From Escherichia phage vB_EcoP_EP32B: DNA of 64,000 nucleotides. The notes beneath the pieces were generated by a model. It ran no database searches. It worked only from the letters and a program-made list of their open reading frames with translations, and was not told where the DNA came from. The stretch is taken from sequence record OR544955; one strand, 5' to 3'. The translations under genes were made by a program, and so were the position numbers. This document shows, in pieces, positions 7,952 to 58,992 of the stretch (position 1 is the first letter of the stretch; every line of letters starts with the position of its first letter).

Positions 7952-8217
7952 AATTAACTCGAATCAGTATAACTGAAGAAAAGCTGGGCGAATTTTATGT
8001 TGACGAATACATGAAAGTTACGTATTTTCCATTCGTTAAAGGTGTTGGTTTTTGGGAAACTCATGTATCTCAATTAAACGAAGGCGACTATAACGAAACA
8101 CATGAGAACTTTTTAGATTTTCTTTATAATGCCGGTCTTACTGAGCTTTATATCGATATCCATGAGTTCAAACGTTTAATGGAAAAAGTGTTTCAGGCTT
8201 ATTGTTTGCTCCGATAG
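7948..8217 (+). CDS. hypothetical protein
   Basis: ATGA-coupled ORF. Confidence 0.5.
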   Translation: MKLTRISITEEKLGEFYVDEYMKVTYFPFVKGVGFWETHVSQLNEGDYNETHENFLDFLYNAGLTELYIDIHEFKRLMEKVFQAYCLLR

Positions 8218-8224
8218 TATCTCG

Positions 8225-8268
8225 TGCTTTAAGATAGGTCTCTAAATATTATGATATAATAGACCTAT
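8225..8268 (+). promoter_or_regulatory. gene 55 promoter region: MotA box plus -10, with 8-bp inverted repeat around a second TATAAT
   Basis: TGCTTTA 8225-31; TAAATAT 8243-49; IR ATAGGTCT 8234-41 / AGACCTAT 8261-68. Confidence 0.5.
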
Positions 8269-8289
8269 GAATTGAGCCAAGAGGTACTT

Positions 8290-8847
8290 ATGACTGAACA
8301 AAAACCTAAAAATAACTATGTGAATAATAAAGAGCTTCTCGCCGCTATAATCGAGTGGAAAAAGGAGCTCTTAAATAATAAAGACCCAAACAAAATTATT
8401 CGTCAGAATGATACCATCGGTTTAGCAATTATGCTTATCGCCGAAGGCCTGTCCAAACGTTTCAACTTTTCAGGATATACCCAGTCTTGGAAGCAGGAGA
8501 TGATTGCAGATGGGATTGAAGCCTCTATTAAGGGACTTCATAATTTCGACGAAACTAAGTACAATAACCCACATGCATACATAACTCGAGCTTGTTTTAA
8601 TGCTTTTGTCCAACGTATCAAAAAAGAACGTAAGGAAGTTGCAAAGAAATATAGTTACTTCGTTCATAATGTCTACGACAGTCATGACGATGATATGGTA
8701 GCGTTGGTAGATGAAACGTTTATTCAAGACATCTACGATAAAATGACGCATTATGAAGAATCCGCTTATAAAGCTCCTGGGGCTGAAAAGAAGGAAGTTG
8801 TTAGCGATTCGCCTAGTTTGGATTTTTTATATGAGGATGACAATTGA
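8290..8847 (+). CDS. 55: late-transcription sigma factor gp55
   Basis: 185 aa, [61 protein letters not shown], recalled T4 gp55 match. Confidence 0.93.
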
Positions 8848-9046
8848 CATCTCTAACTACTTAGAAGAACCTTTTGACGAAGCAATCCCTTATTTGGTAA
8901 AACTGTTGGGTCGTGAATTTAAAATTAATTTTGACATCGACCCTTTGAACCCACACGACGTGTCATTTTCGATAAATGGGACTCCAGTTGAGTACGAGTT
9001 CTGTATTGAAGAGGATGGACGTTTTTATTTTAATTTAATGAGATAA
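8831..9046 (+). CDS. hypothetical protein
   Basis: overlaps gene 55 end; start uncertain (8831 or 8837). Confidence 0.35.
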
Positions 9047-9047
9047 T

Positions 9048-9371
9048 ATGACTACCGAGATTATTGAAAATAAAGAAGCAGAAGATGCAGTAGCTAAAAT
9101 GCTACAAGAAATCCAAAAGAAAAATGAAGCTGAAGCACGTAAAAAATCCGAAAAGATTCTTAAAAAGAATCGTTTTGAACTAAACCGTCTTTATGCTCAC
9201 GCTCAAGAAGCAGCAATTCAAAACAACTTCGAAGCTTACGAATATGCTATTAAGAAATCTCGGGATATTCTACGACAACCATATAATGACAAGTTAATTA
9301 AAATCCAGTGGGTTACTACTCGTCAGGCTATTGAGGACATTATTAATGGCGCTAGTTCAAACAAAGTTTAA
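9048..9371 (+). CDS. hypothetical basic coiled-coil protein
   Basis: 107-aa ORF. Confidence 0.5.
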   Translation: MTTEIIENKEAEDAVAKMLQEIQKKNEAEARKKSEKILKKNRFELNRLYAHAQEAAIQNNFEAYEYAIKKSRDILRQPYNDKLIKIQWVTTRQAIEDIINGASSNKV

Positions 9372-9552
9372 ACGTCTGAAACTGAACGCAGGGTTCACCC
9401 TTAAATTGGGAGGTCCTCTTTGTGTTAAAATTTCTGAAAAGGAATATCACGACGGTTCTATTACAGAAATTTGTCCGCCTATTGTAAAGGCAGACCCAAA
9501 ACAACTCGTATGGGTCGATTCATTTCAAGTTAAGAAATGGTGGAAACGATGA
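9346..9552 (+). CDS. hypothetical protein
   Basis: ATG after GAGGA. Confidence 0.4.
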   Translation: MALVQTKFKRLKLNAGFTLKLGGPLCVKISEKEYHDGSITEICPPIVKADPKQLVWVDSFQVKKWWKR

Positions 9553-9591
9553 GAGAAATTGATTTAGGCATTTTCTGAGAGGTGCTTATGC

Positions 9592-9765
9592 ATGACGAAC
9601 ATCCCGACTTCTGAAAATTTCGATAAAATCCGTAAAGGCAAAGCAGAAAGAATGAGACGTTTTAAAGAGTCTTATGATAAAGCTAAAGCCGAAGGAACTA
9701 TTACATACAAGCCCATTCGATTTAAAAGTTCAAATGAGCCTCTGTACGGCGTACTATGTGGATAG
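9592..9765 (+). CDS. hypothetical protein (57 aa)
   Basis: ATG after GAGAGG; ends at hairpin terminator. Confidence 0.4.
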   Translation: MTNIPTSENFDKIRKGKAERMRRFKESYDKAKAEGTITYKPIRFKSSNEPLYGVLCG

Positions 9766-9789
9766 GAACTCTTCGGAGTTCCTTTTTTT
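9764..9789 (+). terminator. UUCG-tetraloop hairpin plus T7 run
   Basis: AGGAACTC TTCG GAGTTCCT then TTTTTTT. Confidence 0.75.
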
Positions 9790-9813
9790 GCTTTATAAAC
9801 GGATGATAGAATG
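9786..9813 (+). promoter_or_regulatory. middle (MotA-dependent) promoter upstream of gene 47
   Basis: MotA box TGCTTTA at 9789-9795, -10 TAGAAT at 9807-9812. Confidence 0.55.
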
Positions 9814-9835
9814 AATTAATTAATGAGGAAATAAT

Positions 9836-10855
9836 ATGAAAATTTTGCACTTAGGCGACTTCCATATCGGAGTCAAACAAGACGACCCATGGGTTCAAGA
9901 TATTCAACGTGATGGTATTCGTCAAGCAATTGAATACTCTAAGAAACACGGGATTAAAACTTGGATTCAGTACGGTGATTGGTTTGACGTCCGTAAAGCA
10001 ATAACGCATCGTACAATGGAATTCAATCGTGAAATCGTTGATATGATTTCTAAAGCAGGCATTCACGTTCATGTCACGATAGGAAACCATGACATGGCGT
10101 TTAAGAATACAATAACACCTAACACTGTTTCTGAATTGTTAACTCAATTTGAAAACTTTACTATTTACGAACATCCAACTACTGTAGATTTTGACGGATG
10201 TCTGATTGATATCGTTCCATGGATGTGTGAAGAAAATACAGGTGAAATCTTAGAGCACATCAAGACTTCTTCTGCGGCGTATTGTGTTGGTCACTGGGAA
10301 CTGAACGGCTTCTATTTCTATAAAGGAATGAAGTCTCATGGGCTTGAACCTGATTTCTTAAAGACCTATAAACAAGTTTGGTCCGGCCACTTCCACACAA
10401 TCTCTGAAGCTGCTAACGTCAAATATATTGGAACACCGTGGACCCTTACTGCAGGCGATGAGAACGATCCTCGCGGATTCTGGGTATTTGACACTGATGT
10501 TGAACGTATGGAATTTATTCCTAATGAAACAACATGGCATCGACGAATCACTTATCCATTTAAAGGCAAAATCAATTATTCTGATTATACTAATCTAGCC
10601 GTACGTGTTATAGTATCAGAAATTGATTCAGAGTTGACTAAGTTTGAATCTGAACTTGAAAAAGTAGTTCACTCTCTTCGTATGGTTTCTAAAGTTGATA
10701 ACAGTGTTGAATCTGATGACGACCAGGAAATCGAGATTAAATCACTTCAAGATATCATTAAAGAATATATTGACGCGATTCCGGATATCTCAGACGAAGA
10801 CAGAGAAGCGCTGGTCAAATATTCAAACGAACTTTATATTGAGGCAACACAATGA
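9836..10855 (+). CDS. 47: recombination endonuclease subunit gp47 (Mre11-like)
   Basis: 339 aa, phosphoesterase motifs LHLGDFH, GDWFD, GNHD, GHWE, GHFH. Confidence 0.95.
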   Translation: MKILHLGDFHIGVKQDDPWVQDIQRDGIRQAIEYSKKHGIKTWIQYGDWFDVRKAITHRTMEFNREIVDMISKAGIHVHVTIGNHDMAFKNTITPNTVSELLTQFENFTIYEHPTTVDFDGCLIDIVPWMCEENTGEILEHIKTSSAAYCVGHWELNGFYFYKGMKSHGLEPDFLKTYKQVWSGHFHTISEAANVKYIGTPWTLTAGDENDPRGFWVFDTDVERMEFIPNETTWHRRITYPFKGKINYSDYTNLAVRVIVSEIDSELTKFESELEKVVHSLRMVSKVDNSVESDDDQEIEIKSLQDIIKEYIDAIPDISDEDREALVKYSNELYIEATQ

Positions 10856-11109
10856 CTTTAGATGAATTTAACAATGCCGGGCTTGGGCTTGAAGTTGAAA
10901 TAGACGTTAAAGATGATGATGGATTCGAGAACACTATTAAGTATTGGATTGAGCCATTACGCGTTGAAGGCAATGAAGTTAAAGCCGTTCATGTCTGTAC
11001 CGACTGGGCTATTGAATTTAGCTTTAATATAATGGACACTGATACTCCTGGCTCTATTCTTAAAATGGCTGAAGCGTGTATTGAGGATGCGTATAATGAC
11101 GAAGACTGA
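10852..11109 (+). CDS. hypothetical acidic protein
   Basis: 85-aa ORF coupled to 47. Confidence 0.5.
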   Translation: MTLDEFNNAGLGLEVEIDVKDDDGFENTIKYWIEPLRVEGNEVKAVHVCTDWAIEFSFNIMDTDTPGSILKMAEACIEDAYNDED

Positions 11110-16374: not shown

Positions 16375-19059
16375 ATGAAAGAATTTTACTTAACGGTTGA
16401 ACAGATTGGTGATTCAATTTTTGAACGTTACATCGATTCTAATGGCCGTGAACGTACTCGTGAAGTAGAATATAAACCATCACTGTTTGCTCATTGTCCA
16501 GAAAGTCAGGCTACGAAATATTTCGATATCTACGGTAAGCCGTGTACTCGTAAGTTGTTCGCTAATATGCGTGATGCCTCCCAATGGATTAAACGTATGG
16601 AAGATATCGGACTTGAAGCACTTGGCATGGACGATTTCAAATTGGCGTATTTGTCTGACACTTATAACTATGAAATCAAATACGACCATACAAAAATTCG
16701 TGTGGCTAACTTCGACATCGAAGTAACATCTCCGGACGGGTTCCCTGAGCCGTCACAAGCAAAACATCCGATTGATGCTATCACCCATTATGACTCAATT
16801 GACGACAGGTTCTACGTATTTGATCTATTGAATTCTCCATATGGTAATGTAGAAGAATGGTCTATCGAAATTGCAGCTAAGCTTCAAGAACAAGGTGGTG
16901 ATGAAGTTCCATCCGAAATTATCGATAAAATCATTTATATGCCGTTCGATAACGAAAAAGAATTGTTGATGGAATATCTCAACTTCTGGCAACAGAAAAC
17001 TCCTGTCATTTTGACTGGATGGAACGTTGAGTCATTTGATATTCCATATGTGTATAACCGAATCAAGAATATTTTTGGCGAATCTACTGCGAAACGTTTA
17101 TCACCACATCGTAAAACTCGTGTTAAAGTTATCGAAAACATGTATGGTTCTCGTGAAATCATTACATTGTTCGGTATCTCTGTTCTTGATTATATTGACC
17201 TTTACAAAAAATTCTCTTTTACCAATCAACCGTCGTATTCTCTGGATTACATTTCAGAATTTGAATTGAACGTTGGTAAACTGAAATACGACGGTCCTAT
17301 TTCTAAACTTCGTTATAACATCATCGACGTATATCGTGTATTGCAAATTGATGCTAAACGCCAGTTCATTAACTTGAGTTTGGACATGGGTTATTATGCT
17401 AAGATACAGATTCAATCTGTGTTTAGCCCAATTAAAACATGGGATGCTATTATTTTTAATAGCCTTAAAGAACAAAACAAGGTGATTCCACAAGGTCGTT
17501 CGCATCCAGTTCAACCTTACCCGGGTGCTTTTGTTAAGGAACCTATTCCAAATCGATACAAATATGTAATGAGTTTCGACCTTACATCTCTGTATCCAAG
17601 TATTATTCGCCAAGTGAATATTAGCCCGGAAACAATAGCAGGAACGTTTAAAGTAGCTCCACTGCATGATTATATTAACGCAATCGCTGAACGTCCTTCA
17701 GATGTGTACAGTTGCTCTCCTAACGGCATGATGTATTATAAAGACCGTGACGGTGTTGTTCCAACTGAAATCACTAAGGTCTTTAATCAACGTAAAGAAC
17801 ATAAAGGTTATATGCTTGCAGCTCAACGTAATGGTGAAATAATTAAAGAGGCATTGCATAATCCTAATCTTTCTGTTGACGAACCATTAGATGTTGATTA
17901 TCGTTTCGACTTCAGCGATGAGATTAAAGAAAAGATTAAAAAGTTGTCTGCTAAATCTCTTAATGAAATGTTGTTTAGAGCTCAACGTACTGAAGTTGCA
18001 GGTATGACTGCACAGATTAACCGTAAATTGCTTATCAACTCACTTTATGGTGCACTTGGAAACGTTTGGTTCCGTTATTATGATTTGCGTAATGCTACTG
18101 CAATCACAACATTCGGACAAATGGCTTTACAGTGGATTGAACGTAAAGTTAATGAATATCTGAATGAAGTTTGCGGTACAGAAGGTGAAGCTTTCGTTCT
18201 TTATGGTGATACAGACTCTATTTACGTATCTGCTGATAAAATTATCGATAAGGTTGGTGAATCTAAATTCCGTGATACCAACCATTGGGTAGACTTCTTA
18301 GATAAGTTCGCTCGTGAACGTATGGAACCTGCTATTGATAGAGGTTTCCGTGAAATGTGCGAATACATGAATAATAAGCAACATTTGATGTTCATGGACC
18401 GAGAAGCTATCGCTGGTCCTCCGCTCGGTTCTAAAGGTATTGGTGGATTTTGGACTGGTAAGAAACGTTATGCATTAAACGTGTGGGATATGGAAGGTAC
18501 TCGTTACGCTGAGCCTAAACTCAAAATCATGGGTCTAGAGACTCAGAAATCTTCGACACCTAAAGCAGTACAGAAAGCTCTTAAAGAATGTATTCGTCGT
18601 ATGCTTCAAGAAGGTGAAGAATCATTACAAGAATATTTTAAAGAGTTTGAAAAAGAATTCCGTCAATTGAATTATATTAGCATCGCGTCGGTATCTTCTG
18701 CGAATAACATTGCTAAATATGATGTCGGTGGATTCCCTGGCCCCAAATGTCCGTTCCATATTCGTGGAATTCTGACATATAACCGAGCTATCAAAGGTAA
18801 TATCGATGCACCGCAAGTTGTAGAAGGTGAAAAAGTATATGTTCTGCCTTTACGTGAAGGAAACCCATTCGGTGATAAATGTATCGCATGGCCTTCTGGT
18901 ACGGAAATCACTGATTTAATCAAAGATGATGTACTTCATTGGATGGACTACACGGTTCTCCTTGAGAAGACATTTATTAAACCACTTGAAGGATTCACAT
19001 CAGCAGCTAAACTCGATTACGAGAAGAAAGCATCTCTGTTCGATATGTTTGATTTTTGA
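16375..19059 (+). CDS. 43: DNA polymerase gp43 (family B, RB69-type numbering)
   Basis: 894 aa; Exo I FDIE (D114/E116), D222, YGDTDS, KILINSLYG; strong match to recalled RB69 gp43. Confidence 0.97.
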   Translation: MKEFYLTVEQIGDSIFERYIDSNGRERTREVEYKPSLFAHCPESQATKYFDIYGKPCTRKLFANMRDASQWIKRMEDIGLEALGMDDFKLAYLSDTYNYEIKYDHTKIRVANFDIEVTSPDGFPEPSQAKHPIDAITHYDSIDDRFYVFDLLNSPYGNVEEWSIEIAAKLQEQGGDEVPSEIIDKIIYMPFDNEKELLMEYLNFWQQKTPVILTGWNVESFDIPYVYNRIKNIFGESTAKRLSPHRKTRVKVIENMYGSREIITLFGISVLDYIDLYKKFSFTNQPSYSLDYISEFELNVGKLKYDGPISKLRYNIIDVYRVLQIDAKRQFINLSLDMGYYAKIQIQSVFSPIKTWDAIIFNSLKEQNKVIPQGRSHPVQPYPGAFVKEPIPNRYKYVMSFDLTSLYPSIIRQVNISPETIAGTFKVAPLHDYINAIAERPSDVYSCSPNGMMYYKDRDGVVPTEITKVFNQRKEHKGYMLAAQRNGEIIKEALHNPNLSVDEPLDVDYRFDFSDEIKEKIKKLSAKSLNEMLFRAQRTEVAGMTAQINRKLLINSLYGALGNVWFRYYDLRNATAITTFGQMALQWIERKVNEYLNEVCGTEGEAFVLYGDTDSIYVSADKIIDKVGESKFRDTNHWVDFLDKFARERMEPAIDRGFREMCEYMNNKQHLMFMDREAIAGPPLGSKGIGGFWTGKKRYALNVWDMEGTRYAEPKLKIMGLETQKSSTPKAVQKALKECIRRMLQEGEESLQEYFKEFEKEFRQLNYISIASVSSANNIAKYDVGGFPGPKCPFHIRGILTYNRAIKGNIDAPQVVEGEKVYVLPLREGNPFGDKCIAWPSGTEITDLIKDDVLHWMDYTVLLEKTFIKPLEGFTSAAKLDYEKKASLFDMFDF

Positions 19060-19099: not shown

Positions 19100-19408
19100 A
19101 TGAAAACTACTCCTATTACTATCGCTATTGACGCAATCATAAAACAAGCTTCTTCTTTGGCCGCTATGGCCAAAGTAATTAGTCAAAACCCTGCTCGTTA
19201 TAATGCTATTCTAGAAACTCTTCGACGCCCTGGACTGAGTAATTATGAAAGTCGTGTAATTATTACAGGTGTTGGTAAGAACGCTAATATCGCAACTAAA
19301 GCTTCCGAGACATTTGCTTCACTCGGTATCCCGAGTATGTACTTGAACACTGGGCATTATTCTCACGGTGATGCAGGATTCATTGCGCCTAATGAGGCAT
19401 CGCGGTAG
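19100..19408 (+). CDS. KdsD/GutQ-like SIS-domain sugar-phosphate isomerase, N-terminal part (gene frameshifted, continues 19396-19575)
   Basis: ITGVGKNANIATK..TFASLGIPS..HGD; downstream frame has LAPTMSTT and HPGGALG. Confidence 0.6.
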   Translation: MKTTPITIAIDAIIKQASSLAAMAKVISQNPARYNAILETLRRPGLSNYESRVIITGVGKNANIATKASETFASLGIPSMYLNTGHYSHGDAGFIAPNEASR

Positions 19409-19575
19409 AGGTTGATGAGAATTCTCTGGCTCCGACAATGTCTACTACATTGTTGTTAGCGCTTATCGATACGTTCGCTATCAACCTTTCGTCTGAACGT
19501 GGATTTACCTCTAATGATTTCCTTAAGTTCCATCCAGGCGGTGCACTAGGTGCCATGTTACGAGGCGAACAATGA
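19396..19575 (+). pseudogene. C-terminal segment of the SIS isomerase in the -1 frame
   Basis: open frame from 19396 encoding GIAVEVDENSLAPTMSTT...GFTSNDFLKFHPGGALG, no start codon. Confidence 0.55.
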
Positions 19576-19715
19576 AAGCAATAACAATAGGACTTTTACT
19601 ATTGATGCTTGTCATGACTATCTACTGGAGCTTAACGGCTCCGGTAATGATTCCAACACTTGTAATTGGATGGATTATGATTGGACTACAAGCAAAGTAT
19701 GAATGCTTTAACTAG
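19572..19715 (+). CDS. small membrane protein (47 aa)
   Basis: ATGA overlap, hydrophobic. Confidence 0.4.
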   Translation: MKAITIGLLLLMLVMTIYWSLTAPVMIPTLVIGWIMIGLQAKYECFN

Positions 19716-19756
19716 AATAGTGTACAATACACCTACTTACCAATGAGGACTTCAAC

Positions 19757-21442
19757 ATGAAAAAAGCTGTTATTCTTGGTGCTGGACTGGCAACTCGTTT
19801 GTATCCAATAACGCATCATATTCCAAAAGTTCTTGTGAACTATAAACAAGACACTATTCTGAGCAATTTGTATACAATTTATTCTGACCTTGGCGCAGAT
19901 GAAATTATTGTAGTAGTTCATTCAAAATTTGCTGAAACTGTTCGAGCTTATTGTGAGCAAGAAGGGTTCAATGTGACTATTCGTACAGTTGATGAAGCGT
20001 ATGGTTCTGCTTATGCTCTTGCTAAATTACACAAAGATTTAGATGGCCATAACGTAATTGTTAACTGGTGTGATATTATTCCTGATTTTGGTTCATGGTC
20101 TTGGAATGTTAATGCAATCTATGTTAAGGGTGACGAATGTCGATATAATTTTGACGGTGAAAATATCACTAACGTAGGTTCAACAGGTGGTAATGTTGTA
20201 GGAATTTATCAGTTCAAAGACTGGGAATTCTACATGGGTTCTACTGATGAGGAAATTCACGAATACTGCAAAGGTCGTGATTTCGTAGAATTCCTTTACG
20301 GCAGCGCATTCAATAAATCAGAGCTTATGAATCTAATTGATTTAGGTGATATGCCTAAACTTGAAAAAGCTCATGAAGTTCGTGAACTTAATCGTAGTTT
20401 TAATGCAGTTGAAATTGGTGAAGAAACTGTAACTAAATTCGCATTAACCGAACAAGGTCGAGCTCTTCAAAAAGATGAGATTTCATGGTATTTGAAAGTG
20501 AAATCAGATTCAGTTCCTCAGTTAGTTTCGGTAAATGAAAATAATTTTGAAATGGAACGCATTAAAGGTAAGCCGGCATTTGAATATATTAAATCCAAAT
20601 CAAGTCTTGCTCGTCCACAAATTGTTGATGCAATTTTAGATGCACTGAAATTCAGCACAGACACTTATTTTGTAAGTCCTGAAACTGTTCGTCGTGATTT
20701 CACTAAAGAATTCTATACGAAAGTTATTGATCGTTGTGAAAGCATTCAGCCATTGATTGATTCATTTGGTAAAATCACACACGTGAACTACACTAAGATT
20801 GGACGTCTGAAGCCAATGCTGAAGCAAGCTTTAGAACATCTTATTCGTTATCATACCCGTTCTCAGGGACAGTACTCTGTTATTCATGGTGACCCGAACT
20901 TCAGTAATACTATGATTACTGATAATGGCGAAGTCAAGTTTATCGACCCTCGTGGATATTTTGGCGAAACCAAGATTTACGGGCCAAAATTGTACGATGA
21001 AGCTAAAGTGCTTTATGCTGTTTCAGGTTATGATGAATTCAACGCTAATCCGACCTGGGGACAGTTTACTATTGACGAAACAACTTGTAATGTGACTATT
21101 AACATCAATCCATTAGTTTACAAATATGGAAAGATGAGTTCGTTTAACGAGTATCATCATTTGGCTGTAGCAATTATCTGGATTGCATTAGGTGGTTATT
21201 TCAAGAATAATCCACTTAAAGCGGTAGCCGCATATTATAAAGGTATGGAACTTCTGACTAAGCAATTACGTAACATGGGCCGTGTACTTCAAGACGGCTC
21301 TATTAGTTATGACGTAGCAGAACCTGTAACGGCTACTCTGATTACAAAAAATCCTGGTAAATGGGTACTAACTGATAAAGAAACTGGTGTTTCTTATCGT
21401 CCAATCGGTGGCGATATCACTCATCAATGGGAACGAATCTAA
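19757..21442 (+). CDS. bifunctional sugar-1-phosphate nucleotidyltransferase / sugar kinase (APH-choline-kinase-like)
   Basis: N-term GAGLATRL; C-term HGDPNFSN catalytic loop and IDPRG; 561 aa. Confidence 0.75.
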   Translation: MKKAVILGAGLATRLYPITHHIPKVLVNYKQDTILSNLYTIYSDLGADEIIVVVHSKFAETVRAYCEQEGFNVTIRTVDEAYGSAYALAKLHKDLDGHNVIVNWCDIIPDFGSWSWNVNAIYVKGDECRYNFDGENITNVGSTGGNVVGIYQFKDWEFYMGSTDEEIHEYCKGRDFVEFLYGSAFNKSELMNLIDLGDMPKLEKAHEVRELNRSFNAVEIGEETVTKFALTEQGRALQKDEISWYLKVKSDSVPQLVSVNENNFEMERIKGKPAFEYIKSKSSLARPQIVDAILDALKFSTDTYFVSPETVRRDFTKEFYTKVIDRCESIQPLIDSFGKITHVNYTKIGRLKPMLKQALEHLIRYHTRSQGQYSVIHGDPNFSNTMITDNGEVKFIDPRGYFGETKIYGPKLYDEAKVLYAVSGYDEFNANPTWGQFTIDETTCNVTININPLVYKYGKMSSFNEYHHLAVAIIWIALGGYFKNNPLKAVAAYYKGMELLTKQLRNMGRVLQDGSISYDVAEPVTATLITKNPGKWVLTDKETGVSYRPIGGDITHQWERI

Positions 21443-21828
21443 TGCACCGTGTAGAAAACATGCTTAATCTTTGTTTTGATGTCGATGATTGTATAACAGA
21501 GTGGAATAACAATCGTGATTACGTGAACTTCAAACCAGACGTCGAAATGGTGACTGCTATTAATGCCCTGTATGATGCAGGGCATACCATAACGCTTTAC
21601 ACTGCTCGTGGTATGAAGTCAGTAGGTCCTGGTCGTATAGCAATTGACATTCTCCCAAGTCTGATTCAGAACTTGGAAAACATTGGTTTGAAGTACCATA
21701 ATTTGCTAACACATAAACCAGTATATGATTGGATTATCGACGACAAAGCTATGCGTCCCGACGAATTCAAAGCTCTTATGAATAAAGGCGAATTCGAAAC
21801 ATTTAAATCATATAAACCGAATCTATAA
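21442..21828 (+). CDS. HAD-superfamily phosphatase
   Basis: motif I FDVDDCIT (DxDxT); TAATG coupling. Confidence 0.65.
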   Translation: MHRVENMLNLCFDVDDCITEWNNNRDYVNFKPDVEMVTAINALYDAGHTITLYTARGMKSVGPGRIAIDILPSLIQNLENIGLKYHNLLTHKPVYDWIIDDKAMRPDEFKALMNKGEFETFKSYKPNL

Positions 21829-21884: not shown

Positions 21885-23045
21885 ATGAATACTTTTAAAA
21901 TTGGAACGAATTTTGATTTAGCTCTTCTTGATAAAATCGTAGAGCTCAATAAAACTTATCCTAATAGCTTGATAAACGAAGTATACGGCTCTACAAGAGA
22001 AATGGCTTTTGTAGCAGCCAGACCTGATTTTAGGCTTCCTGACGTTGACAAAAAGATGTTAGAAGATTACGTTAAACGTTGTAACGAATTAGGTATTTGC
22101 TTTAACTATACACTCAACACGATAAATCCTGGTTCAAAAAGAGAACTAGTCGAGTGGAAGAAGAAAGCTATTCAGGATTATGTTCAGTATCTTTGGTCAA
22201 TAGGCGTATGGCGTATTACTATCGCTAACCCTGTTGTTATGGAAATTGTTCGTGAAGTCAATAAAGACATTGAGATTGAAGTTTCAACAATTCTACATGT
22301 CGATGCTGTAACTCAAATAAAATACTTGCATGACCAATATAATATCAAAAAGGTCTGCTGTGGAATTCATAAGAACCGTTCAGTTTCTTTCCTGAAGCGT
22401 GCAGCAGAGTTTTGCAATAAGAACAATATAATATTTGAAGTTCTTGTAAATGAGTTCTGTTCTAATGCTGGTAAAGGGTATACAACACATTGTAGCTATC
22501 GTGACTCTTGCTATATTTTCCATAGTACTGATGTTACAGCCGATGATGCTAAATCCTTAAACGGGTATCCTATGCAGCACTGTATTAAAGCTCGTGATAC
22601 AGACCCATTTAACTGGTTGAGAACTCGTTTTGTTCGTCCTCAAGATTTGAAACTTTATAATGATATTGGTATCACTCAATTCAAAGTTTCAGGACGTACA
22701 GGTAGCACAGACTACATTTTGAAAGTTCTTGAAGCATACGCTTCTGAAAAGTTTGAAGGTAATTTGTTAGAACTGTGGAAGCCTTTAGAGACTATTTTCA
22801 CTCTTGAAAATGAAACTGAGTTTTCACATACAGTAAATATTGAAACCTCTTTGTTAGATGGCTTTTTAGAAAAAAGGTGGTTCAGACATCCAGATTTTGA
22901 TTGTGCTAATGAAATCTGTGGATCAACGTGTACATATTGTGAAAGATATTATAAACGTCAATTATCTAAAAACGGGTTAGCAGAAAACTCTATATCTATT
23001 ATTGATATAACTAACTCTGATGACGCTTTGAGGTACCCGGAATGA
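21885..23045 (+). CDS. hypothetical protein with Cys-rich C-terminus; faint peptidase-U32-like motif
   Basis: 386 aa; NEFCSNAGKGYTTHCS and CANEICGSTCTYC. Confidence 0.5.
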   Translation: MNTFKIGTNFDLALLDKIVELNKTYPNSLINEVYGSTREMAFVAARPDFRLPDVDKKMLEDYVKRCNELGICFNYTLNTINPGSKRELVEWKKKAIQDYVQYLWSIGVWRITIANPVVMEIVREVNKDIEIEVSTILHVDAVTQIKYLHDQYNIKKVCCGIHKNRSVSFLKRAAEFCNKNNIIFEVLVNEFCSNAGKGYTTHCSYRDSCYIFHSTDVTADDAKSLNGYPMQHCIKARDTDPFNWLRTRFVRPQDLKLYNDIGITQFKVSGRTGSTDYILKVLEAYASEKFEGNLLELWKPLETIFTLENETEFSHTVNIETSLLDGFLEKRWFRHPDFDCANEICGSTCTYCERYYKRQLSKNGLAENSISIIDITNSDDALRYPE

Positions 23046-23323: not shown

Positions 23324-24040
23324 ATGGGAAAACATAACACAATGAAATATATCAAAGCCGCAGATTTTCAAACCGCATTTAAAGCAGTCAATCGTGAAAT
23401 TTTAGAAAACCCGGAATTCGTAACTGATTCTCGTATTGGACGTTGTAATGAAATTGGGTCTATGACAGTAGTTGTTGACACTCCATCATCATTCAAAATG
23501 ACCGACCCGCGTATTAACCGCATCTCTTATGAATATGCCGAAGACTTCTGGAAGTTTATGATTTCTGGTGGTACTGACGCAGAAGAAGCGTTTAAGGCAT
23601 ATCCTAATGTCGCTAAATTTATTTCTAAACCAAAATCAGATGCTTTGCCTGCAAACTTCAACACTTTCTATGGTCCTCGCATTGCGGCCCAATTACCAGC
23701 TCTTCTAAAAGAACTTAAAGAGAAGCCTAACTCCAGAAGAGTTGTGTTCCAAATTCTAGAAAGTTCTGATCAGGCTTTGCTTGATTCGGACGAAACGCTT
23801 GAATATCCATGTACTGACTCAGTGACTTATTATATTCGTGACGGTAAGCTTTATACCCACTGTCATATGCGTTCCCAGAACTGTGCTGTTGTTATGCAGT
23901 TGGATTTTTATCTCCAAGGAAAATTACTTCATTATATCGCTAACGAATGCGGTGTAGAAGTTGGTGATTATACTCATACCATGGTAAGTGCCCATGTGTT
24001 TGAACGTGATTTTGATTATGTTAAAGGATTCCTTGACTAA
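23324..24040 (+). CDS. thymidylate-synthase-family deoxypyrimidylate hydroxymethylase (gene 42 position)
   Basis: NSRR, catalytic Cys in YPCT, MRSQN..D; RBS GAGG. Confidence 0.65.
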   Translation: MGKHNTMKYIKAADFQTAFKAVNREILENPEFVTDSRIGRCNEIGSMTVVVDTPSSFKMTDPRINRISYEYAEDFWKFMISGGTDAEEAFKAYPNVAKFISKPKSDALPANFNTFYGPRIAAQLPALLKELKEKPNSRRVVFQILESSDQALLDSDETLEYPCTDSVTYYIRDGKLYTHCHMRSQNCAVVMQLDFYLQGKLLHYIANECGVEVGDYTHTMVSAHVFERDFDYVKGFLD

Positions 24041-24939
24041 TGGCTATTTTCCGCGTACCAATCTTGAGTATGCGGTCTTATGAAACTGGTCAGTATGCTA
24101 TCCTTAAGGATGGCAACTTCCAACTTCATTTGCACCGTGCTAATCCGGGTGATGTGATTACATATCCACGTAATGCATCTGATATTAAAGAATGCGAACG
24201 TCTTTTTCCGGAATTTAAGTTTGTTCCATTATGGTATAAAGATAACGCGTATAACACTCGTAAATATTTCTGGTCTGAAAATGAATTTGTGGTTGATTCA
24301 TTAATTGCTTATTATGATTGTGATTTTCTAATCACAGATATCACTGGTTATGATGGCGCTTTTGACGTAGAATTCAATTTCAATATCACTGCAGACCCTA
24401 ATAAACCACGTTTTTATATTGATGAATTCTTAAAAACTGATATGTTGTCGGTTAATCGTTCACTTCAAACTACTGTGTTGAATGAACGTCAAAAAGAAGT
24501 GCTGGTTAACGCAGGTGCAGATGGTAATAAGATTATCGTAACGCAGAAAGTTATACGTCCTTCCGTCATGCAGCGTCTTGTAGGTGATTTGGCTCCTATT
24601 CATCTAGATGGTATTTTTCATCCATTTCGAATTAGTGACCCATGCTATCGTTTTGAACAAGTGGTTGAATGCGCAATTCAATTAGGTCAACCGCTTTATA
24701 TAACTGATCCAAATAATAGTTTCGACAGAAATAAGTATCCTGAAGAAGCGCTGATTCGAATTTTTAATCCAACTAAAACTGAGTACTATCAAATTCTTAA
24801 AGGACGTCCGAAGATTCAATATTTCGAAAATCCTGAAGAAGTATTCCATCCAGGTCTTGGTGAGTTCATCTACTTTAATGCTTTAATTTCTTCACCGTAT
24901 AATATACCTAAATACGAAGATGTCGTAATCGAGGAATAA
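24040..24939 (+). CDS. hypothetical protein (beta-gt position, no recognisable motifs)
   Basis: 299-aa ORF coupled ATGGCT after TAA. Confidence 0.5.
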   Translation: MAIFRVPILSMRSYETGQYAILKDGNFQLHLHRANPGDVITYPRNASDIKECERLFPEFKFVPLWYKDNAYNTRKYFWSENEFVVDSLIAYYDCDFLITDITGYDGAFDVEFNFNITADPNKPRFYIDEFLKTDMLSVNRSLQTTVLNERQKEVLVNAGADGNKIIVTQKVIRPSVMQRLVGDLAPIHLDGIFHPFRISDPCYRFEQVVECAIQLGQPLYITDPNNSFDRNKYPEEALIRIFNPTKTEYYQILKGRPKIQYFENPEEVFHPGLGEFIYFNALISSPYNIPKYEDVVIEE

Positions 24940-24940
24940 A

Positions 24941-25489
24941 ATGGCTAAAATTATTTTAGTAGACGGGCCGGATAATGCTGGTAAAACAACTTTCATTAAT
25001 GACATAATGGAAATTAGTGAAAGATATGTAAAGATTGATTTCCCTAAACGAACAGTTGATGGGCGTTTCGATGTTAAGTCTCGAAATGAAGTCGGCTGTT
25101 TCGAAACGATGTTGAATTATTTGGACCCTACTAAGATTTATCTGTTAGACCGTGGATATATTAGTAACTGGGTTTATGGACGTATTCGACAAGATGTGGA
25201 CTCGGTTCTTGACGTTTATGAACAGGATTATGTTCGTCTTTGCCAAAACCATGATGTGTTCACAATTATTTTAACACGTAACGAAATGACTGAAAGTTTT
25301 GAAGACGACCTTATTACTTTGTCTTCATTCGGTTTTAATACAGTCATTTCATATTTTGAAGAGTTTGCAATTCATAACAAAATCCAAACGTATCAATTAC
25401 TTAATCATGATGGTGCTAATAAAGTTATAGGATTTAACGCAAGCGAACGTAATAATTTGATTACAGAAATCATCAAATGGGCTCGTTAA
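24941..25489 (+). CDS. P-loop nucleotide kinase-like protein
   Basis: ILVDGPDNAGKTTF Walker A; 182 aa. Confidence 0.6.
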   Translation: MAKIILVDGPDNAGKTTFINDIMEISERYVKIDFPKRTVDGRFDVKSRNEVGCFETMLNYLDPTKIYLLDRGYISNWVYGRIRQDVDSVLDVYEQDYVRLCQNHDVFTIILTRNEMTESFEDDLITLSSFGFNTVISYFEEFAIHNKIQTYQLLNHDGANKVIGFNASERNNLITEIIKWAR

Positions 25490-30064: not shown

Positions 30065-30313
30065 ATGGAATTATTCGTGGCTAGTTCAGTAGCAGTTTTA
30101 ATCGCAGGTATTGGTTCAATCATCATTTACATGTTGCCTTGGGTAATCGCACTTATTCGTGGCACAAAAAGCACAACAGCAATCTTCTTTGTATCTTTAC
30201 TCTTTAACTGGACGATGGTTGGTTGGATTGGAACTTTAATTTGGTCTATCGTTGCCGAAAAGAAATCTGCTCAGCAGCCTCAACAAGTAATTATTATTCG
30301 CGAAAAAGAATAA
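30065..30313 (+). CDS. two-TM membrane protein, possible superinfection-immunity type
   Basis: 82 aa, two hydrophobic helices. Confidence 0.45.
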   Translation: MELFVASSVAVLIAGIGSIIIYMLPWVIALIRGTKSTTAIFFVSLLFNWTMVGWIGTLIWSIVAEKKSAQQPQQVIIIREKE

Positions 30314-30671: not shown

Positions 30672-31088
30672 ATGATTTATTATATGCACAAAAATGCGCC
30701 ATTTAAATATGGTAAATTTCCTAATGCACAATGTTATAATATAACGCCTAATGAAAATAATAACGGATACCATCTCGGTGTAATTTTTGTAATTGTTAAA
30801 GATAACGAAATCGTTGCCTGGGCAGATTTTAAAGGTACAACATATGATGTTAATCCTGTGCCTTTCACATATTATAATTTAATGGATTTGGCATATGATT
30901 ATAATTGGTTTAATCATGAAGGATTTGACATCTCTTATTCTAGCTATTCATTATGTCCTATGAGCCGAGCTCACGGTAAAGATGTATCATATCTTTCAAT
31001 TCGGAAACGTGTAAACTTCAAACGTAGTACAGAGTATGTTGGTGGACTCTTTGTTAAAGATAATAAAATAACATTAGTTATCCTCTAA
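30672..31088 (+). CDS. hypothetical protein; reading frame appears to continue in -1 frame to about 31294
   Basis: 138-aa ORF; adjacent start-less open frame 31067-31294. Confidence 0.4.
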   Translation: MIYYMHKNAPFKYGKFPNAQCYNITPNENNNGYHLGVIFVIVKDNEIVAWADFKGTTYDVNPVPFTYYNLMDLAYDYNWFNHEGFDISYSSYSLCPMSRAHGKDVSYLSIRKRVNFKRSTEYVGGLFVKDNKITLVIL

Positions 31089-31295
31089 GTGTAGGCCAAA
31101 AAGATGTTGATGTTGATTTGGACTTAACTGAAAATAACATTAATCGTATTGCTTCTGTATATTTTGATATCGATGAAAAAATTGTAGTGTGTGGATACGA
31201 ATTACCACCTGAAGAAAAGGCCGAAACAATTGAAGTCGAATTAGAAATTTCTGTTGATGACCAAATATTTAATGCATTTATGAATCGAGGTTAAA

Positions 31296-31481
31296 ATGAC
31301 TACTGCAATTTGCACTGGTTCTAAAATTAGTGTTTTTACAAGTTTTGAAGATTATGAAGTTGTTTCAAAACACCAATGCCATATTAGCGTAAAAGCTAAT
31401 GACGGTGTAATTTGGAATATTCCACAGTATGAAGGCACTACATATGAAGTCACAGATAAAGCAATCTTTGTAATTGATTAA
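31296..31481 (+). CDS. hypothetical protein
   Basis: 61-aa ORF. Confidence 0.4.
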   Translation: MTTAICTGSKISVFTSFEDYEVVSKHQCHISVKANDGVIWNIPQYEGTTYEVTDKAIFVID

Positions 31482-42684: not shown

Positions 42685-43107
42685 ATGGCTTTTAAAGGTT
42701 TTGAAGTTGGTAAGAAATATCGTATTATCAAAGGTCAAGAAGATAATTTCTTGAGAATTCTTAATACAACTGGTAAACGTCTTAACACTACTCTGCATAC
42801 AGTTTTATTATCAAGAGATTTTATTGTAGAAGAGATGATTGGTTACGGTGTTTCAATGATTGCCGCTGAAACCGATGGACCTGGGCGTACAATCATTAGT
42901 ATGCAAGGTGATATTCTGCTTTATGGTGCAGAATTTAAATTCTTTGAAGAAGTTCCGGAACCAGATACAGCTGTCGATTTCAAAAAAGGCTCTATAGAAT
43001 TTGTTGATGGTTCGGTGATCGTATCAGGCGATGTGGTCATTACAGTTAAAAGTGAACAAGGGCGTTTGGCTGCAATTGATGCACTTCAGAAAATTAAATT
43101 TAAATAA
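42685..43107 (+). CDS. hypothetical protein
   Basis: 140-aa ORF. Confidence 0.5.
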   Translation: MAFKGFEVGKKYRIIKGQEDNFLRILNTTGKRLNTTLHTVLLSRDFIVEEMIGYGVSMIAAETDGPGRTIISMQGDILLYGAEFKFFEEVPEPDTAVDFKKGSIEFVDGSVIVSGDVVITVKSEQGRLAAIDALQKIKFK

Positions 43108-43124
43108 GGGCTTCGGCCCTTTTT
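43106..43124 (+). terminator. UUCG-tetraloop hairpin plus T run
   Basis: AAGGGC TTCG GCCCTT TTT. Confidence 0.7.
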
Positions 43125-43149
43125 GCTTTAGATTTCGGATGATAGAATA
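43121..43149 (+). promoter_or_regulatory. middle (MotA-dependent) promoter upstream of gene 39
   Basis: MotA box TGCTTTA 43124-30, -10 TAGAAT 43143-48; near-identical to cassette at 9786-9813. Confidence 0.55.
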
Positions 43150-45030: not shown

Positions 45031-45621
45031 ATGAAAGTTATGTTTATCCCATCTCGCGCAGTCCCATTTAATCCTGACCGTGTACAAGGTGGACTTGAAG
45101 CAGTACATTTAAATGTGTTGAAATATTTAGTTTCTATCGGTGCCGATATTGATTATATTGGTTTTGATAATGACACATTTGGTGATTGGAAGGTTAATCA
45201 TCATCCTGTTGGTCATCTGACTAAATTCAGTCTAGGTATGAGTTATACTATGGCCCGTAAGATTGTTGAACTAGCCGGCATCCATGAATACGATTTTGTT
45301 GTTACTATGGAACCGACTAAACTAACCGTCCAAGCAATTAAAGATGCTGGACTCTCTAAAGTTCATAAGAATTTTATGGCAACACCGTTTGAACCGGTAT
45401 CTCGTGGCATTGTTCAAATTTGGGACCAGACTATTCAAATTCATAAGAATGGTGGTAAGAGTTATGCTCCTACTAAAGCCTTCCGTGAATTTGAACGTAA
45501 ATATTGTTATATGACTTCAGGTCTGACTGACAAAATTGATTATGATTATTGGCGAGCAAATCCGTTGTTTGAAGCCGAAGATTATCCGGTTATTTGTTTG
45601 AATGAGAAACCTGAGATCTGA
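45031..45621 (+). CDS. GT-B-fold glycosyltransferase, N-terminal domain (gene split by frameshift)
   Basis: MKVMFIPSRAVPFNPDRVQGGLE..; ends NEKPEI. Confidence 0.55.
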   Translation: MKVMFIPSRAVPFNPDRVQGGLEAVHLNVLKYLVSIGADIDYIGFDNDTFGDWKVNHHPVGHLTKFSLGMSYTMARKIVELAGIHEYDFVVTMEPTKLTVQAIKDAGLSKVHKNFMATPFEPVSRGIVQIWDQTIQIHKNGGKSYAPTKAFREFERKYCYMTSGLTDKIDYDYWRANPLFEAEDYPVICLNEKPEI

Positions 45622-46115
45622 TTATTAGTGCACAACGTTATGACACTAAAATGCGTCGTACTGATGTTGCTCTTGAAGCGATTAAAGCACTAGGCGAAAA
45701 TGGTGCAGGATACTGTCCAAGCAAATGGGCACCACCAGCTAAATATCCTGTTATTATTGATGCTCAACACAGTGAAATCATGGAACGTCTTAAAACAGCT
45801 AAAGCACTTATTAATACGTGTCCTGACACAGGTACGGTAGAGAATAGTTCTATTGAAGCCATCTCTAAAGGTGTCCCTGTAATCCAGTTAGTTTTTAAGG
45901 ATTATCCTCATGCGACATTCGAATACGACCCAGATACTGTGCGTGTAGAAATTGATTCCTCTACTCCTAAGAAAGAAGTAGTTGCGCTTTACACAAAAGC
46001 TGTATTAGAATTCACTGACACATACGAAGCTCGAGTTAAACGTGCTGAAGCAGTATGGAAGAAGTATAATCGAGATGCAGTTGTTGCGATGTGGGATAAA
46101 ATCTTCACAGCGTAA
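45615..46115 (+). CDS. GT-B-fold glycosyltransferase, C-terminal domain (-1 frame; first ATG at 45651)
   Basis: frame open from 45615: DLIISAQRYDTKMRRTDVALEAIKAL, typical of GT4 C-domain start. Confidence 0.55.
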   Translation, partial: DLIISAQRYDTKMRRTDVALEAIKALGENGAGYCPSKWAPPAKYPVIIDAQHSEIMERLKTAKALINTCPDTGTVENSSIEAISKGVPVIQLVFKDYPHATFEYDPDTVRVEIDSSTPKKEVVALYTKAVLEFTDTYEARVKRAEAVWKKYNRDAVVAMWDKIFTA

Positions 46116-53562: not shown

Positions 53563-54195
53563 ATGTCTAAAGTTACTTACATCATCAAAGCTTCTGAAAA
53601 CGCTCTGAATGAAAAAACTGCTGCAATAATGGTTTATATCATTAAGAACAACTTCACCACTGCTGCCAATGTCCGTGAAGCTCTGGAAGCAGAATACAGT
53701 GCATCAGTTGTTAACTCTAACATTGGTGTATTGATTAAGAAAGGTTTAGTCGAAAAATCCGGTGATGGACTTGTAGCAACAGGCGAAGCAATGGATATTA
53801 TCCAAAAAGCTGCAGACCTCTTTGCCCAAGAAAATGCTCCAGAACTTCTTCAGAAACGTAACACCAGAAAAGCACGTGGAGTTACTCCTGAAATGCATGA
53901 ACTAGCAAACTTTGTTTTTGAAAATATTAAAGATAAAGTTGAAGTTAAAGAAATTGGTGAAAACCGTAGTAACTTAGAAGTTCGATTTGCAAAACGAGTT
54001 CTAGGTATTCGTCAGATCGAAATTCGTCGAGATGGTTCTCTTAGAATCTTTGCATACAACATGTCAGAAACTGAATCAAAGCTGTTTACTTCTCTTGAAA
54101 ATGATGTTAAGATTAAGATCGGTGGTAAATATACTTACATTGACTTCCCTAATGTGTCCAAAGAAATCATTACCCTTGTAACTAACGTACTGTGA
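53563..54195 (+). CDS. motA: middle-transcription activator MotA
   Basis: 210 aa; MSKVTYIIKAS..NSNIGVLIKKGLVEKSGDGL as recalled for T4 MotA. Confidence 0.9.
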   Translation: MSKVTYIIKASENALNEKTAAIMVYIIKNNFTTAANVREALEAEYSASVVNSNIGVLIKKGLVEKSGDGLVATGEAMDIIQKAADLFAQENAPELLQKRNTRKARGVTPEMHELANFVFENIKDKVEVKEIGENRSNLEVRFAKRVLGIRQIEIRRDGSLRIFAYNMSETESKLFTSLENDVKIKIGGKYTYIDFPNVSKEIITLVTNVL

Positions 54196-54535: not shown

Positions 54536-54623
54536 AATCATTTAAAGAACGTTTAGAAATGAAGTTCCTGAAATCTGTTGGCAAACTCTGGTTATTCCTG
54601 GAGTTCGTCATTACTCTAAAGAT

Positions 54624-55881: not shown

Positions 55882-56154
55882 ATGAATAAAGACATTGAAA
55901 TCGTACGTGAAATTATTACTATTGCTTCTATTTTGATTAAATTCTCTAGGGAAGATATTGTTGAAGACCGAGCAAGTTTCATCGGATTCTTGAATGAGAT
56001 TGGAATTAAAAAAGATGGTCGGCAGCTAAATCAGAATTCGTTCAGAAAACTAATTACAAATTTAACTGCCGAAGAAAAGAAAACACTGATTAGTGAATTC
56101 AATGAAGGTTTTGAAAATATTTATCGTCATTTAGCGATGTATTCTAACAACTAA
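55882..56154 (+). CDS. asiA: anti-sigma-70 factor AsiA
   Basis: 90 aa; REIIT.ASILIKFSREDIVE.RA.FI.FLNEIG...GR.LNQNSFRK as recalled for T4 AsiA. Confidence 0.9.
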   Translation: MNKDIEIVREIITIASILIKFSREDIVEDRASFIGFLNEIGIKKDGRQLNQNSFRKLITNLTAEEKKTLISEFNEGFENIYRHLAMYSNN

Positions 56155-57408: not shown

Positions 57409-58992
57409 ATGCTAAACGAACGATATAGTTAAAAGCAACGTTTTTAACTGTGTTTTCTGTATTTCCTGTGGCATTTACAGTTATTGTATGTCCATGGGAA
57501 CCAATTGCAACAGTATGAGAATGAGCACCAATACCTACCGAATGGGTATGAGCGCCAATACCCACAGTATGAGCATGGTTACCCGTGGTACTTGTGGTTC
57601 CTGACCAAGAGTGTGTATGGTTACCTTCTGAAGAAGTTTTGGCTATATTCGACCCTGCAGTAGCACCGTTCACGGTTCCAGTGAATTTAGAGCACTATGG
57701 TTATGAGACTTAATACCATCTGCTTCTGTACTTAATACAGCACGCCCAGATGGTTTACCTTTAATCGTTTGCCCACGCATATCAGGCAGAGAGCCGGAAG
57801 GATACACCGCAGCTAACTTAGGATACAAGCCAGCATCAAATGTTTGACCTTCCATTATGGCATAACCTTCAGGAGGTGTATCAGTAGGCCATGGAATCGG
57901 AGCACCAATTGGGTAACTCGACACAATATCCGTCTTAAGGTTATTTATTGTGGTATTCAAGTTAGCAAAATTACCAGAACCGCCGGTGATATTACCATCA
58001 GTACCAATAATTGTCCTAATTGCATACGGTAATTAGGAGAAATGCGACTATGACTAGTTATAACAACAAGTTTATTATCATTATCAACGGTCACCATATT
58101 ACCGCCAGCACCATCATCACCTAACGTAACAGAATGGCGCATTTGAACCATACCGTTAATAGTGGTTCATTTTACCACCAGCATTGTACCCGATATGGGT
58201 TTGTCCGTCTCCAGCATTGTTATTATCAGCTTGTGTTTGAACCCTTGGTCTTCTGAACGTCCAAATATACCTTTACGAGTACTACGGAAACTGTCAGGAG
58301 TAATAGAAGCAACAGAATTCCAATTACCTACTAAATCATAAACTCCTTGCTTAATATATTTTAAGCCAGTAGCAGCATCCCCCAAAGCAATATATCTTTC
58401 TCCCATTGGAGTAGGAGAGCCGTAGTTATTGGTATTTTCGTCAGCAGTAATTGTGCCAATAGCAAGTGAACGACGTAATACCATTGCTCCATCATTACGA
58501 AGACCCATTAATTTAGTAGTAAGTATATTTCCGGTCCACCAAGAAATTTCATCATTCTTACCAGTTTGAGCTGAAGCGATTTCATGGTAAATAGTTCCGC
58601 CTGATTTAGCTCGAACTTTACGAAGATAGTTTATACCATTTTCTTCACCTGTTCCAGGATAAACATATTGAACTAATGACTGCGAATCGTATTGTCCAAA
58701 TGCTTTTGTGTCCAAAACAATGGTTTTCGTATTAACTTGCGGAGCAGAAACTATACCATTAGCGGAGTTAATATTGCCGGACGCAGAAATATTACCTGCG
58801 TTGAGTTACATTACCGTTAATATCCCCGCCCTTAGCAAAGCCTAGGCTAATAATATTACCGAGGTCATCTTTAGTAAAAAGAGTTCGATCTTTTAAGTTT
58901 ATCGCTAATTCGCCTTCGGCTAATTGTGCTGCAGTAGGATTAACTCCTGCTACTTTGCTTCTTTTAAATTGTATCTGTTTTAATGTAGCCAT
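57407..58992 (-). pseudogene. 37: distal tail fiber gene 37 (T4 type), reading frame broken into at least five segments
   Basis: N-term [13 protein letters not shown]; internal [23 protein letters not shown]; His-box C-term [22 protein letters not shown]; frame changes near 58790, 58235, 58155, 57670. Confidence 0.8.

Follow-up and report, generated by a model that had tools for sequence, protein, structure and literature searches.

We analysed a 64,000-nucleotide (nt) stretch of Escherichia phage vB_EcoP_EP32B (sequence record OR544955; the whole stretch is hereafter called the window). Our analysis centres on the interval between gene 55 and gene 47, the site at which phage T4 carries the alpha-glucosyltransferase gene a-gt. 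In the window this interval lacks a-gt, and the DNA of the phage lineage to which it belongs is very probably modified with arabinosyl-5-hydroxycytosine and not with T4-type glucosyl-hydroxymethylcytosine.

Gene content of the gene 55–gene 47 interval

The left border of the interval is gene 55 (8290–8847, + strand, as are all features of the interval), which encodes a late sigma factor with 91% identity to T4 gp55 over 182 amino acids (aa) and is annotated as an RNA polymerase sigma factor in relatives. The right border is gene 47 (9836–10,855), which encodes an SbcD-like nuclease subunit (Pfam Metallophos) with 76% identity to T4 gp47 over 339 aa.

Between these borders lie four small open reading frames (ORFs), in agreement with the 'three or four' of a preliminary description of this DNA. 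The first is an a-gt.5 homolog of 71 aa (8831–9046; tblastn with T4 a-gt.5, E 1e-14; Pfam DUF5491, E 2e-11; phrog_1169), which shares its first 17 nt with the end of gene 55. It is followed by homologs of a-gt.4 (9048–9371, 107 aa; E 2.5e-32 to T4 a-gt.4; Pfam DUF2654, E 1e-27; phrog_951), a-gt.3 (9346–9552, 68 aa; E 2.6e-29 and 71% identity to T4 a-gt.3; phrog_1648; also annotated at the corresponding position in relatives) and a-gt.2 (9592–9765, 57 aa; E 3e-24 and 76% identity to T4 a-gt.2; Pfam DUF5486, E 4.5e-28).

T4 thus has homologs of both border genes and of each of the four small ORFs, at 46–91% identity. The difference lies downstream of a-gt.2. In the window only 70 nt (9766–9835) separate a-gt.2 from gene 47, whereas the same distance in T4 is 2283 nt and holds mobB (an HNH homing endonuclease gene), a-gt (400 aa) and 47.1 (46 aa). 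The statement in the preliminary description that T4 encodes a protein of about 400 aa here is thus borne out by the T4 map, and none of these three genes is present in the window's gene 55–47 interval. No ORF of about 400 aa lies between a-gt.2 and gene 47; the interval measures 990 nt and is occupied by four small ORFs, and therefore has no room for a gene of that size.

The preliminary description also placed a terminator and a MotA-type promoter in the interval, and both can be located. A consensus scan identified an intrinsic-terminator-like hairpin at 9764–9790, with an 8-bp stem, a UUCG tetraloop and seven following U residues (AGGAACTC-UUCG-GAGTTCCT, then T7). The predicted RNA fold has an energy of -13.2 kcal/mol (z -3.2), and equivalent hairpins occur at the same place in T4 and in phages Mineola, VR26 and FB. 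C(UUCG)G hairpins are reportedly a classical feature of T4 intercistronic regions, an observation attributed to Tuerk et al. in 1988. An Rfam scan of 8000–10,500 at E<=1 detected no known RNA element.

A pattern search predicted a MotA-type middle promoter for gene 47 at 9789–9812 (TGCTTTA-N11-TAGAAT). Promoters of this type have a MotA box, (t/a)(t/a)TGCTT(t/c)A, followed at a distance of about 12 nt by a TAnnnT -10 element, and the phage encodes MotA and AsiA. Box, spacing and -10 element are all found at 9789–9812, and the window encodes both motA (53,563–54,195) and asiA (55,882–56,154). The MotA-box pattern occurs at 17 sites across the window, this one included, against 3.7 expected. These motifs point to terminator and promoter activity at 9764–9812, and a single MotA-dependent middle promoter would here restart transcription into genes 47 and 46. 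A matching composite unit lies at 43,099–43,148, before gene 39; it starts with a GC hairpin whose loop is UUCG and continues with a run of T, the motif TGCTTTA and CGGATGATAGAAT.

The region at 8000–11,000 aligns as a single collinear piece to 146 Mosigvirus phage records at 98.4–98.7% identity. The matches include E. coli O157 typing phages 3, 6 and 13, APCEc01, HY126 and the BASEL phages AlbertHofmann and ChristianSchoenbein. Because these 3 kb are collinear with Mosigvirus genomes, we assign the window, on sequence grounds, to an RB69-type T-even phage. Its closest match is E. coli O157 typing phage 3 (98–99%). The + strand gene order begins near nrdD and continues with 55, 47, 46, 45, 44, 62, regA, 43, uvsX, 41, 61, 56, dda, 39, rIIA/B, 52, motA, asiA and the tail-fibre genes.

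The window is not identical to the RB69 record. RB69 has the same order of 55, a-gt.5, a-gt.4, a-gt.3, a-gt.2 and 47, with a spacer of 69 nt instead of 70 nt between a-gt.2 and gene 47. Compared with the nearest relative, the interval differs only by one extra T (at 9783). HY126 has 98.4% identity over 8000–11,000 and no known difference within the interval; the window differs from it by deletions outside the interval. The interval thus appears to be an ordinary Mosigvirus gene 55–47 junction.

Absence of T4-type glucosyltransferases

We searched the window and the nearest relative with an assembled complete genome (NC_041863, 168,733 bp, 98% identical) by tblastn with T4 a-gt, T4 b-gt, Mineola a-gt and the T2-type ba-gt of Mineola. 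No a-gt homolog was found: the best E-value was 0.73 for the window and 1.4 for the complete NC_041863 sequence. Likewise, no homolog of b-gt or of the T2/T6-type ba-gt was found in either sequence (best E 1.5–1.6 in the window and 3.1–3.7 in NC_041863), consistent with the earlier claim that b-gt is missing. Taken together, the queries gave best E-values of 0.7–1.7 in the window and 1.4–3.7 in the relative's genome. The check that had been proposed, a tblastn search with both glucosyltransferases, therefore returned no homolog in the window or in the genome of the relative.

By comparison, T4 a-gt has homologs in 657 phage records. Forty of these, sampled across the ranking, belong to Tequatrovirus-type phages (of Escherichia, Shigella, Yersinia, Salmonella and Citrobacter) and to Klebsiella/Raoultella phages. 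RB69 itself has been reported to lack a-gt and b-gt homologs (Thomas et al., 2018, PMC6024577 section 3.2; Lee et al., 2026, PMC13326640). In the window, the slot between the gene 42 equivalent and uvsX is filled not by b-gt or ba-gt, but by a 299-aa GT-B protein and a kinase.

An arabinose gene cluster

We identified a set of genes on the + strand of the window that correspond to the published arabinose pathway of RB69-type phages. The first (19,100–19,408) is an N-terminal fragment of a KpsF-like arabinose-5-phosphate isomerase gene (RB69 gp55), annotated in relatives as a kpsF of 211 aa. It is followed by an AfhE-like bifunctional sugar kinase/nucleotidyltransferase of 561 aa (19,757–21,442; RB69 gp52:53), with a Pfam NTP_transferase match at residues 3–99 and kinase-like matches at 344–409. 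Its role in making UDP-arabinose is taken from the literature (PMC13326640 section 27). The next gene (21,427–21,828; RB69 gp51) encodes an AfhF-like, HAD-like phosphatase of 133 aa. A Pfam scan of this protein gave no match; it is collinear with its counterparts in relatives and has 62% identity to the homolog of the Dhakavirus FB, and its role follows PMC13326640. A Peptidase-U32-like protein (21,885–23,045; RB69 gp50; Pfam Peptidase_U32, E 7e-11) comes next and is listed as a putative reductase in RB69 (PMC13326640 Table 1).

The position of T4 gene 42 is occupied by a ThyA-like 5-hydroxy-deoxycytidine monophosphate (5-hydroxy-dCMP) synthase (23,324–24,040; RB69 gp48; Pfam Thymidylat_synt), which has only 25% identity to T4 gp42. 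The protein matches PDB entry 9iqc over its full length (E 4.5e-162). We read 9iqc as the enzyme of phage HY126, judging from the series to which its entry code belongs and from the 98.4% DNA identity between HY126 and the window. RB69 gp48 makes 5-hydroxy-dCMP from dCMP with O2 and flavin (PMC13326640 section 24).

Directly after this gene 42 equivalent, in the position of T4 b-gt, lies DNA arabinosyltransferase 1, a GT-B fold protein of 299 aa (24,040–24,939; RB69 gp46:47). Its structure model has a GT-B fold at a predicted local distance difference test score (pLDDT) of 95, and the two Rossmann domains that define the fold are both predicted in the model. A thymidylate-kinase-like nucleotide kinase (24,941–25,489; RB69 gp45) follows, annotated as a thymidylate kinase in relatives and included in PMC13326640 Table 1. 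A second arabinosyltransferase (45,031–46,115; RB69 gp3/ORF003c) is located between gene 39 and rIIA and is split into two ORFs (45,031–45,621 and 45,651–46,115). Its N-terminal half matches a phage HY126 glycosyltransferase (PDB 9iqz, E 4.5e-133), and its halves match positions 1–196 and 213–366 of phrog_8302.

The cluster has about 97.8% DNA identity to that of RB69. ORFs 46:47 and 52:53, which are split in the RB69 record, are intact in the window, whereas the kpsF and gp3 homologs are broken in the window. The window also resembles the HY126 Afh pathway (structures 9iqc/9ir2 and 9iqz/9ir0), in that the synthase and the N-terminal half of the second transferase match PDB chains. The 43-to-uvsX segment is remodelled around the arabinose cluster. 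The window's imm homolog (30,065–30,310) is found beyond uvsX and gene 41, close to sp, whereas imm of T4 lies between genes 43 and 42.

DNA chemistry of the lineage

Arabinosylated cytosine in RB69-type phages was described by Thomas et al. (2018, PMC6024577), and arabinose has been detected in RB69 DNA by high-performance anion-exchange chromatography, mass spectrometry and nuclear magnetic resonance (PMC6024577, PMC13326640). Later work on RB69 (Lee et al., 2026, PMC13326640) and on HY126 established that the modified base is arabinosyl-5-hydroxycytosine and is not based on hydroxymethylcytosine; arabinosyl-5-hydroxydeoxycytidine replaces deoxycytidine in RB69 virion DNA (PMC13326640). The published route leads from ribulose-5-phosphate through arabinofuranose-5-phosphate, arabinofuranose-1,5-bisphosphate and arabinofuranose-1-phosphate to UDP-arabinofuranose; the 5-hydroxyl then receives one arabinose, and another is added after it (PMC13326640 sections 24–27). 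This chemistry and enzymology covers RB69, DLP3 and HY126 (PMC6024577; PMC13326640 sections 24–27).

Near-identity to RB69 and HY126 suggests that the window encodes the same pathway. The flavin-dependent ThyA homolog (23,324–24,040) would convert dCMP to 5-hydroxy-dCMP, and the enzymes encoded at 19,100–21,828 would convert ribulose-5-phosphate to UDP-arabinofuranose. The GT-B transferase (24,040–24,939) would then place arabinose on the 5-hydroxyl, and the second transferase (45,031–46,115) would add a further arabinose. By analogy, EP32B's own DNA would have the same chemistry. The base as well as the sugar would then differ from those of T4, as they do in RB69, with 5-hydroxycytosine and arabinose in combination.

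We therefore regard the interval as an RB69-type junction without the a-gt cassette and consider it highly likely that the DNA of this lineage contains arabinosyl-5-hydroxycytosine and not glucosyl-hydroxymethylcytosine. The preliminary description had argued from the two missing glucosyltransferases to a non-glucose DNA sugar. That conclusion is supported by the arabinose cluster in the window and by the arabinose of RB69 DNA.

Three points weigh against this reading. The search of the phage's own genome spans 64 kb, the remaining ~105 kb having been checked through the 98%-identical relative. Frameshifting deletions affect the kpsF homolog and the second transferase in the window but occur in none of the relatives examined. 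Finally, the case for arabinosyl-5-hydroxycytosine in EP32B's own DNA draws on chemistry carried out with its relatives.

The broken kpsF and second transferase would also fit a phage with no DNA sugar at all, in which cytosine is unmodified or non-glycosylated, as seems to be the case in Gaprivervirus, whose member VR26 combines an empty slot with the absence of any gp42-type enzyme or transferase between genes 43 and uvsX. We consider this very unlikely for the window, where the 5-hydroxy-dCMP synthase, the kinase/uridylyltransferase, the phosphatase and transferase 1 are all intact and have ~98% DNA identity to those of phages with demonstrated arabinosyl-5-hydroxycytosine (PMC13326640). 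The host enzymes KdsD and GutQ, moreover, could stand in for the isomerase.

A further alternative is that glucose is still used and is added by non-orthologous GT-B transferases (24,040–24,939 and 45,031–46,115) that replace a-gt and b-gt. This is extremely unlikely: the cluster contains an arabinose-5-phosphate isomerase gene and AfhE/AfhF-type UDP-arabinose enzymes, the RB69 sugar is arabinose by all three analytical methods cited above, and the acceptor base is 5-hydroxycytosine and not hydroxymethylcytosine.

That the missing a-gt is a deletion or misassembly artefact of this sequence has a negligible probability; the window does lack about 1 kb per 25 kb elsewhere, and the reading frame is shifted in gene 46, in kpsF, in the second transferase and in gene 56, but the one-piece alignment of the region to 146 records, the single-T difference from the nearest relative and the equivalent RB69 junction all argue against it. 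A window-specific deletion as the cause of the empty slot is effectively refuted by the 146-record alignment and the RB69 record.

Distribution of a-gt among T4-like phages

We compared the gene 55–47 slot and the 43-to-uvsX region across T4-like phages. In T4 (Tequatrovirus), the slot contains the small ORFs with mobB, a-gt and 47.1, and the 43-to-uvsX region contains a T4-type gp42 and b-gt. In Mineola (Jiaodavirus), the slot contains the small ORFs and a-gt, and the 43-to-uvsX region contains a T4-type gp42 and ba-gt. In the window and RB69 (Mosigvirus), small ORFs alone are accompanied by the 5-hydroxycytosine synthase, transferase 1 and UDP-arabinose genes. FB (Dhakavirus) has small ORFs and an unannotated 47.1 in the slot, together with a 5-hydroxycytosine synthase (79% identity to the window's protein), a transferase 1 (67% identity to the window's protein), a kinase/uridylyltransferase and a phosphatase. 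VR26 (Gaprivervirus) has small ORFs only and neither type of gp42 nor a transferase in the 43-to-uvsX region. The slot holds two small ORFs in GEC-3S (Krischvirus) and AC4 (Lazarusvirus), and genes 55 and 47 abut in cyanophages and Ackermannviridae.

The slot therefore lacks a-gt in most of the T4-like genera compared. Where a-gt is present it co-occurs with a T4-type gp42 (T4, Mineola), and an empty slot co-occurs with the 5-hydroxycytosine synthase and transferase in the window and FB. The presence of a-gt thus tracks hydroxymethylcytosine chemistry. Its absence is compatible either with arabinosyl-5-hydroxycytosine or with a 43-to-uvsX region devoid of modification genes. VR26 has no a-gt in the slot and neither a gp42-type enzyme nor a transferase between 43 and uvsX, so a missing a-gt is by itself no sign of another sugar. 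The positive evidence for a non-glucose sugar is the arabinose cluster, not the gap.

Two features of the compared phages concern annotation. In FB (L010, 2842–3003), gene 47 is immediately preceded by a 47.1 homolog (MELLLGYVVLFMAFYTFTRACWIGFFSTPDGF...) that has no annotation; since FB lacks a-gt, the occurrence of 47.1 does not depend on that gene. In Mineola (L008, 2447–2502), the annotated TTG start of a-gt falls inside a hairpin/MotA-promoter unit, and the true start is likely the ATG at ~2502 (MKINILMARGLEGCG, which matches the N-terminus of T4 a-gt).

Origin of the empty slot

The combination of a hairpin and a MotA-box promoter is common to the window and T4, and the two differ in its copy number. 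T4 has two such units, which bracket mobB and a-gt. The first follows a-gt.2 (hairpin GGAGC-UUCG-GCUCC and a MotA promoter) and the second follows a-gt (GGGC-UUCG-GCCC and AGCTTTA...TATAAT). Mineola shares the four small ORFs and the unit before gene 47 with the window, and differs in having a-gt in the slot (67% identity to T4 a-gt) with its own upstream hairpin/promoter unit; one unit thus precedes a-gt and one follows it. The window, VR26 and FB each have a single unit. Direct repeats of the regulatory unit therefore bracket a-gt in T4 and Mineola, and a single unit remains in Mosigvirus, Gaprivervirus and Dhakavirus, compared with two in T4 and Jiaodavirus. The two units that bracket a-gt in both T4 and Mineola suggest that the hairpin and MotA promoter form a recurring regulatory cassette at module borders.

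A possible, though rather doubtful, extension is that a-gt is a self-contained cassette between ~45-nt repeats of the UUCG hairpin and MotA promoter. The lone unit at 9764–9812 would then be an excision footprint or an empty attachment point, and the event would have accompanied a switch from glucosyl-hydroxymethylcytosine to arabinosyl-5-hydroxycytosine. Recombination between the repeats would delete a-gt cleanly and leave the arrangement seen; the opposite event, in which a-gt was inserted and the unit duplicated, is just as possible. When the 70-nt spacer was aligned with both T4 units in MAFFT, the alignment was too short to show from which T4 copy the lone unit derives.

The direction of change can also be considered from protein divergence. 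T4 and Mineola share 67% identity in a-gt, 71% in gp47 and 78% in gp55, and T4 resembles the window more closely than it resembles Mineola. Because the T4–Mineola divergence of a-gt resembles that of gp47 and gp55, these identities suggest a long residence of a-gt in the slot and hence a loss in Mosigvirus. The many genera and outgroups without a-gt instead favour its independent gain or transfer. Parsimony is ambiguous, and we consider loss and never having gained the gene about equally probable.

Deletions elsewhere in the window

Outside the interval, the window is shorter than its best-matching relatives by ~1 kb per 25 kb. We identified private deletions of 12–722 nt relative to the nearest relative, at 6216, 11,165, 12,816, 17,321–17,332, 19,395, 30,920–31,458, 33,589, 33,762, 36,065, 45,615, 49,977, 54,557–54,584 and 57,690–58,800. 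Over 11,001–36,000, the extra DNA is present in all 12 best matches.

Several genes are affected. Gene 46 lacks 88 nt and is frameshifted, and gene 43 lacks 27 nt in-frame, which removes ESNHQRYIS of the RB69 polymerase. A frameshift from 160 missing nt truncates the kpsF ORF to 102 aa; all 30 listed relatives have the extra 160 nt and the full 211-aa gene, and IMG/VR contained no contig with an exact match to the kpsF deletion junction. A loss of 594 nt leaves gene 56 without its 3' half and eliminates two small ORFs. Sixteen nt missing at 45,615 split the second transferase into ORFs of 196 and 154 aa, a denB-like gene is frameshifted or truncated by the loss of 14 nt, and gene 37 lacks several segments.

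These private deletions look like artefacts or the marks of a defective genome. Artefacts are suggested by gene 56, because a phage with half a dCTPase gene is unlikely to be viable, as judged from T4 genetics. They leave the gene 55–47 interval unaffected. If the deletions were real, the pathway would be partly disabled and host KdsD/GutQ would have to supply arabinose-5-phosphate. E. coli itself encodes these arabinose-5-phosphate isomerases, and loss of kpsF therefore need not block the pathway. The 16-nt deletion, if real, would result in mono- rather than di-arabinosylated DNA.

Implications

That RB69-like phages lack a-gt and b-gt has already been published, as has the pathway that replaces them (2018, 2025, 2026), and the finding for this window is a correct annotation and no new biology. 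If the cassette model for a-gt is true, regulatory cassettes would be general handles for swaps of DNA-modification genes in T-even phages. The DNA sugar of a T-even phage decides which restriction, CRISPR and type IV defences can attack it, and also whether genes can be exchanged between phages. Recognizing the arabinosyl-5-hydroxycytosine type, as opposed to the glucosyl-hydroxymethylcytosine type, from sequence alone is thus useful for annotation and for the choice of therapy phages.

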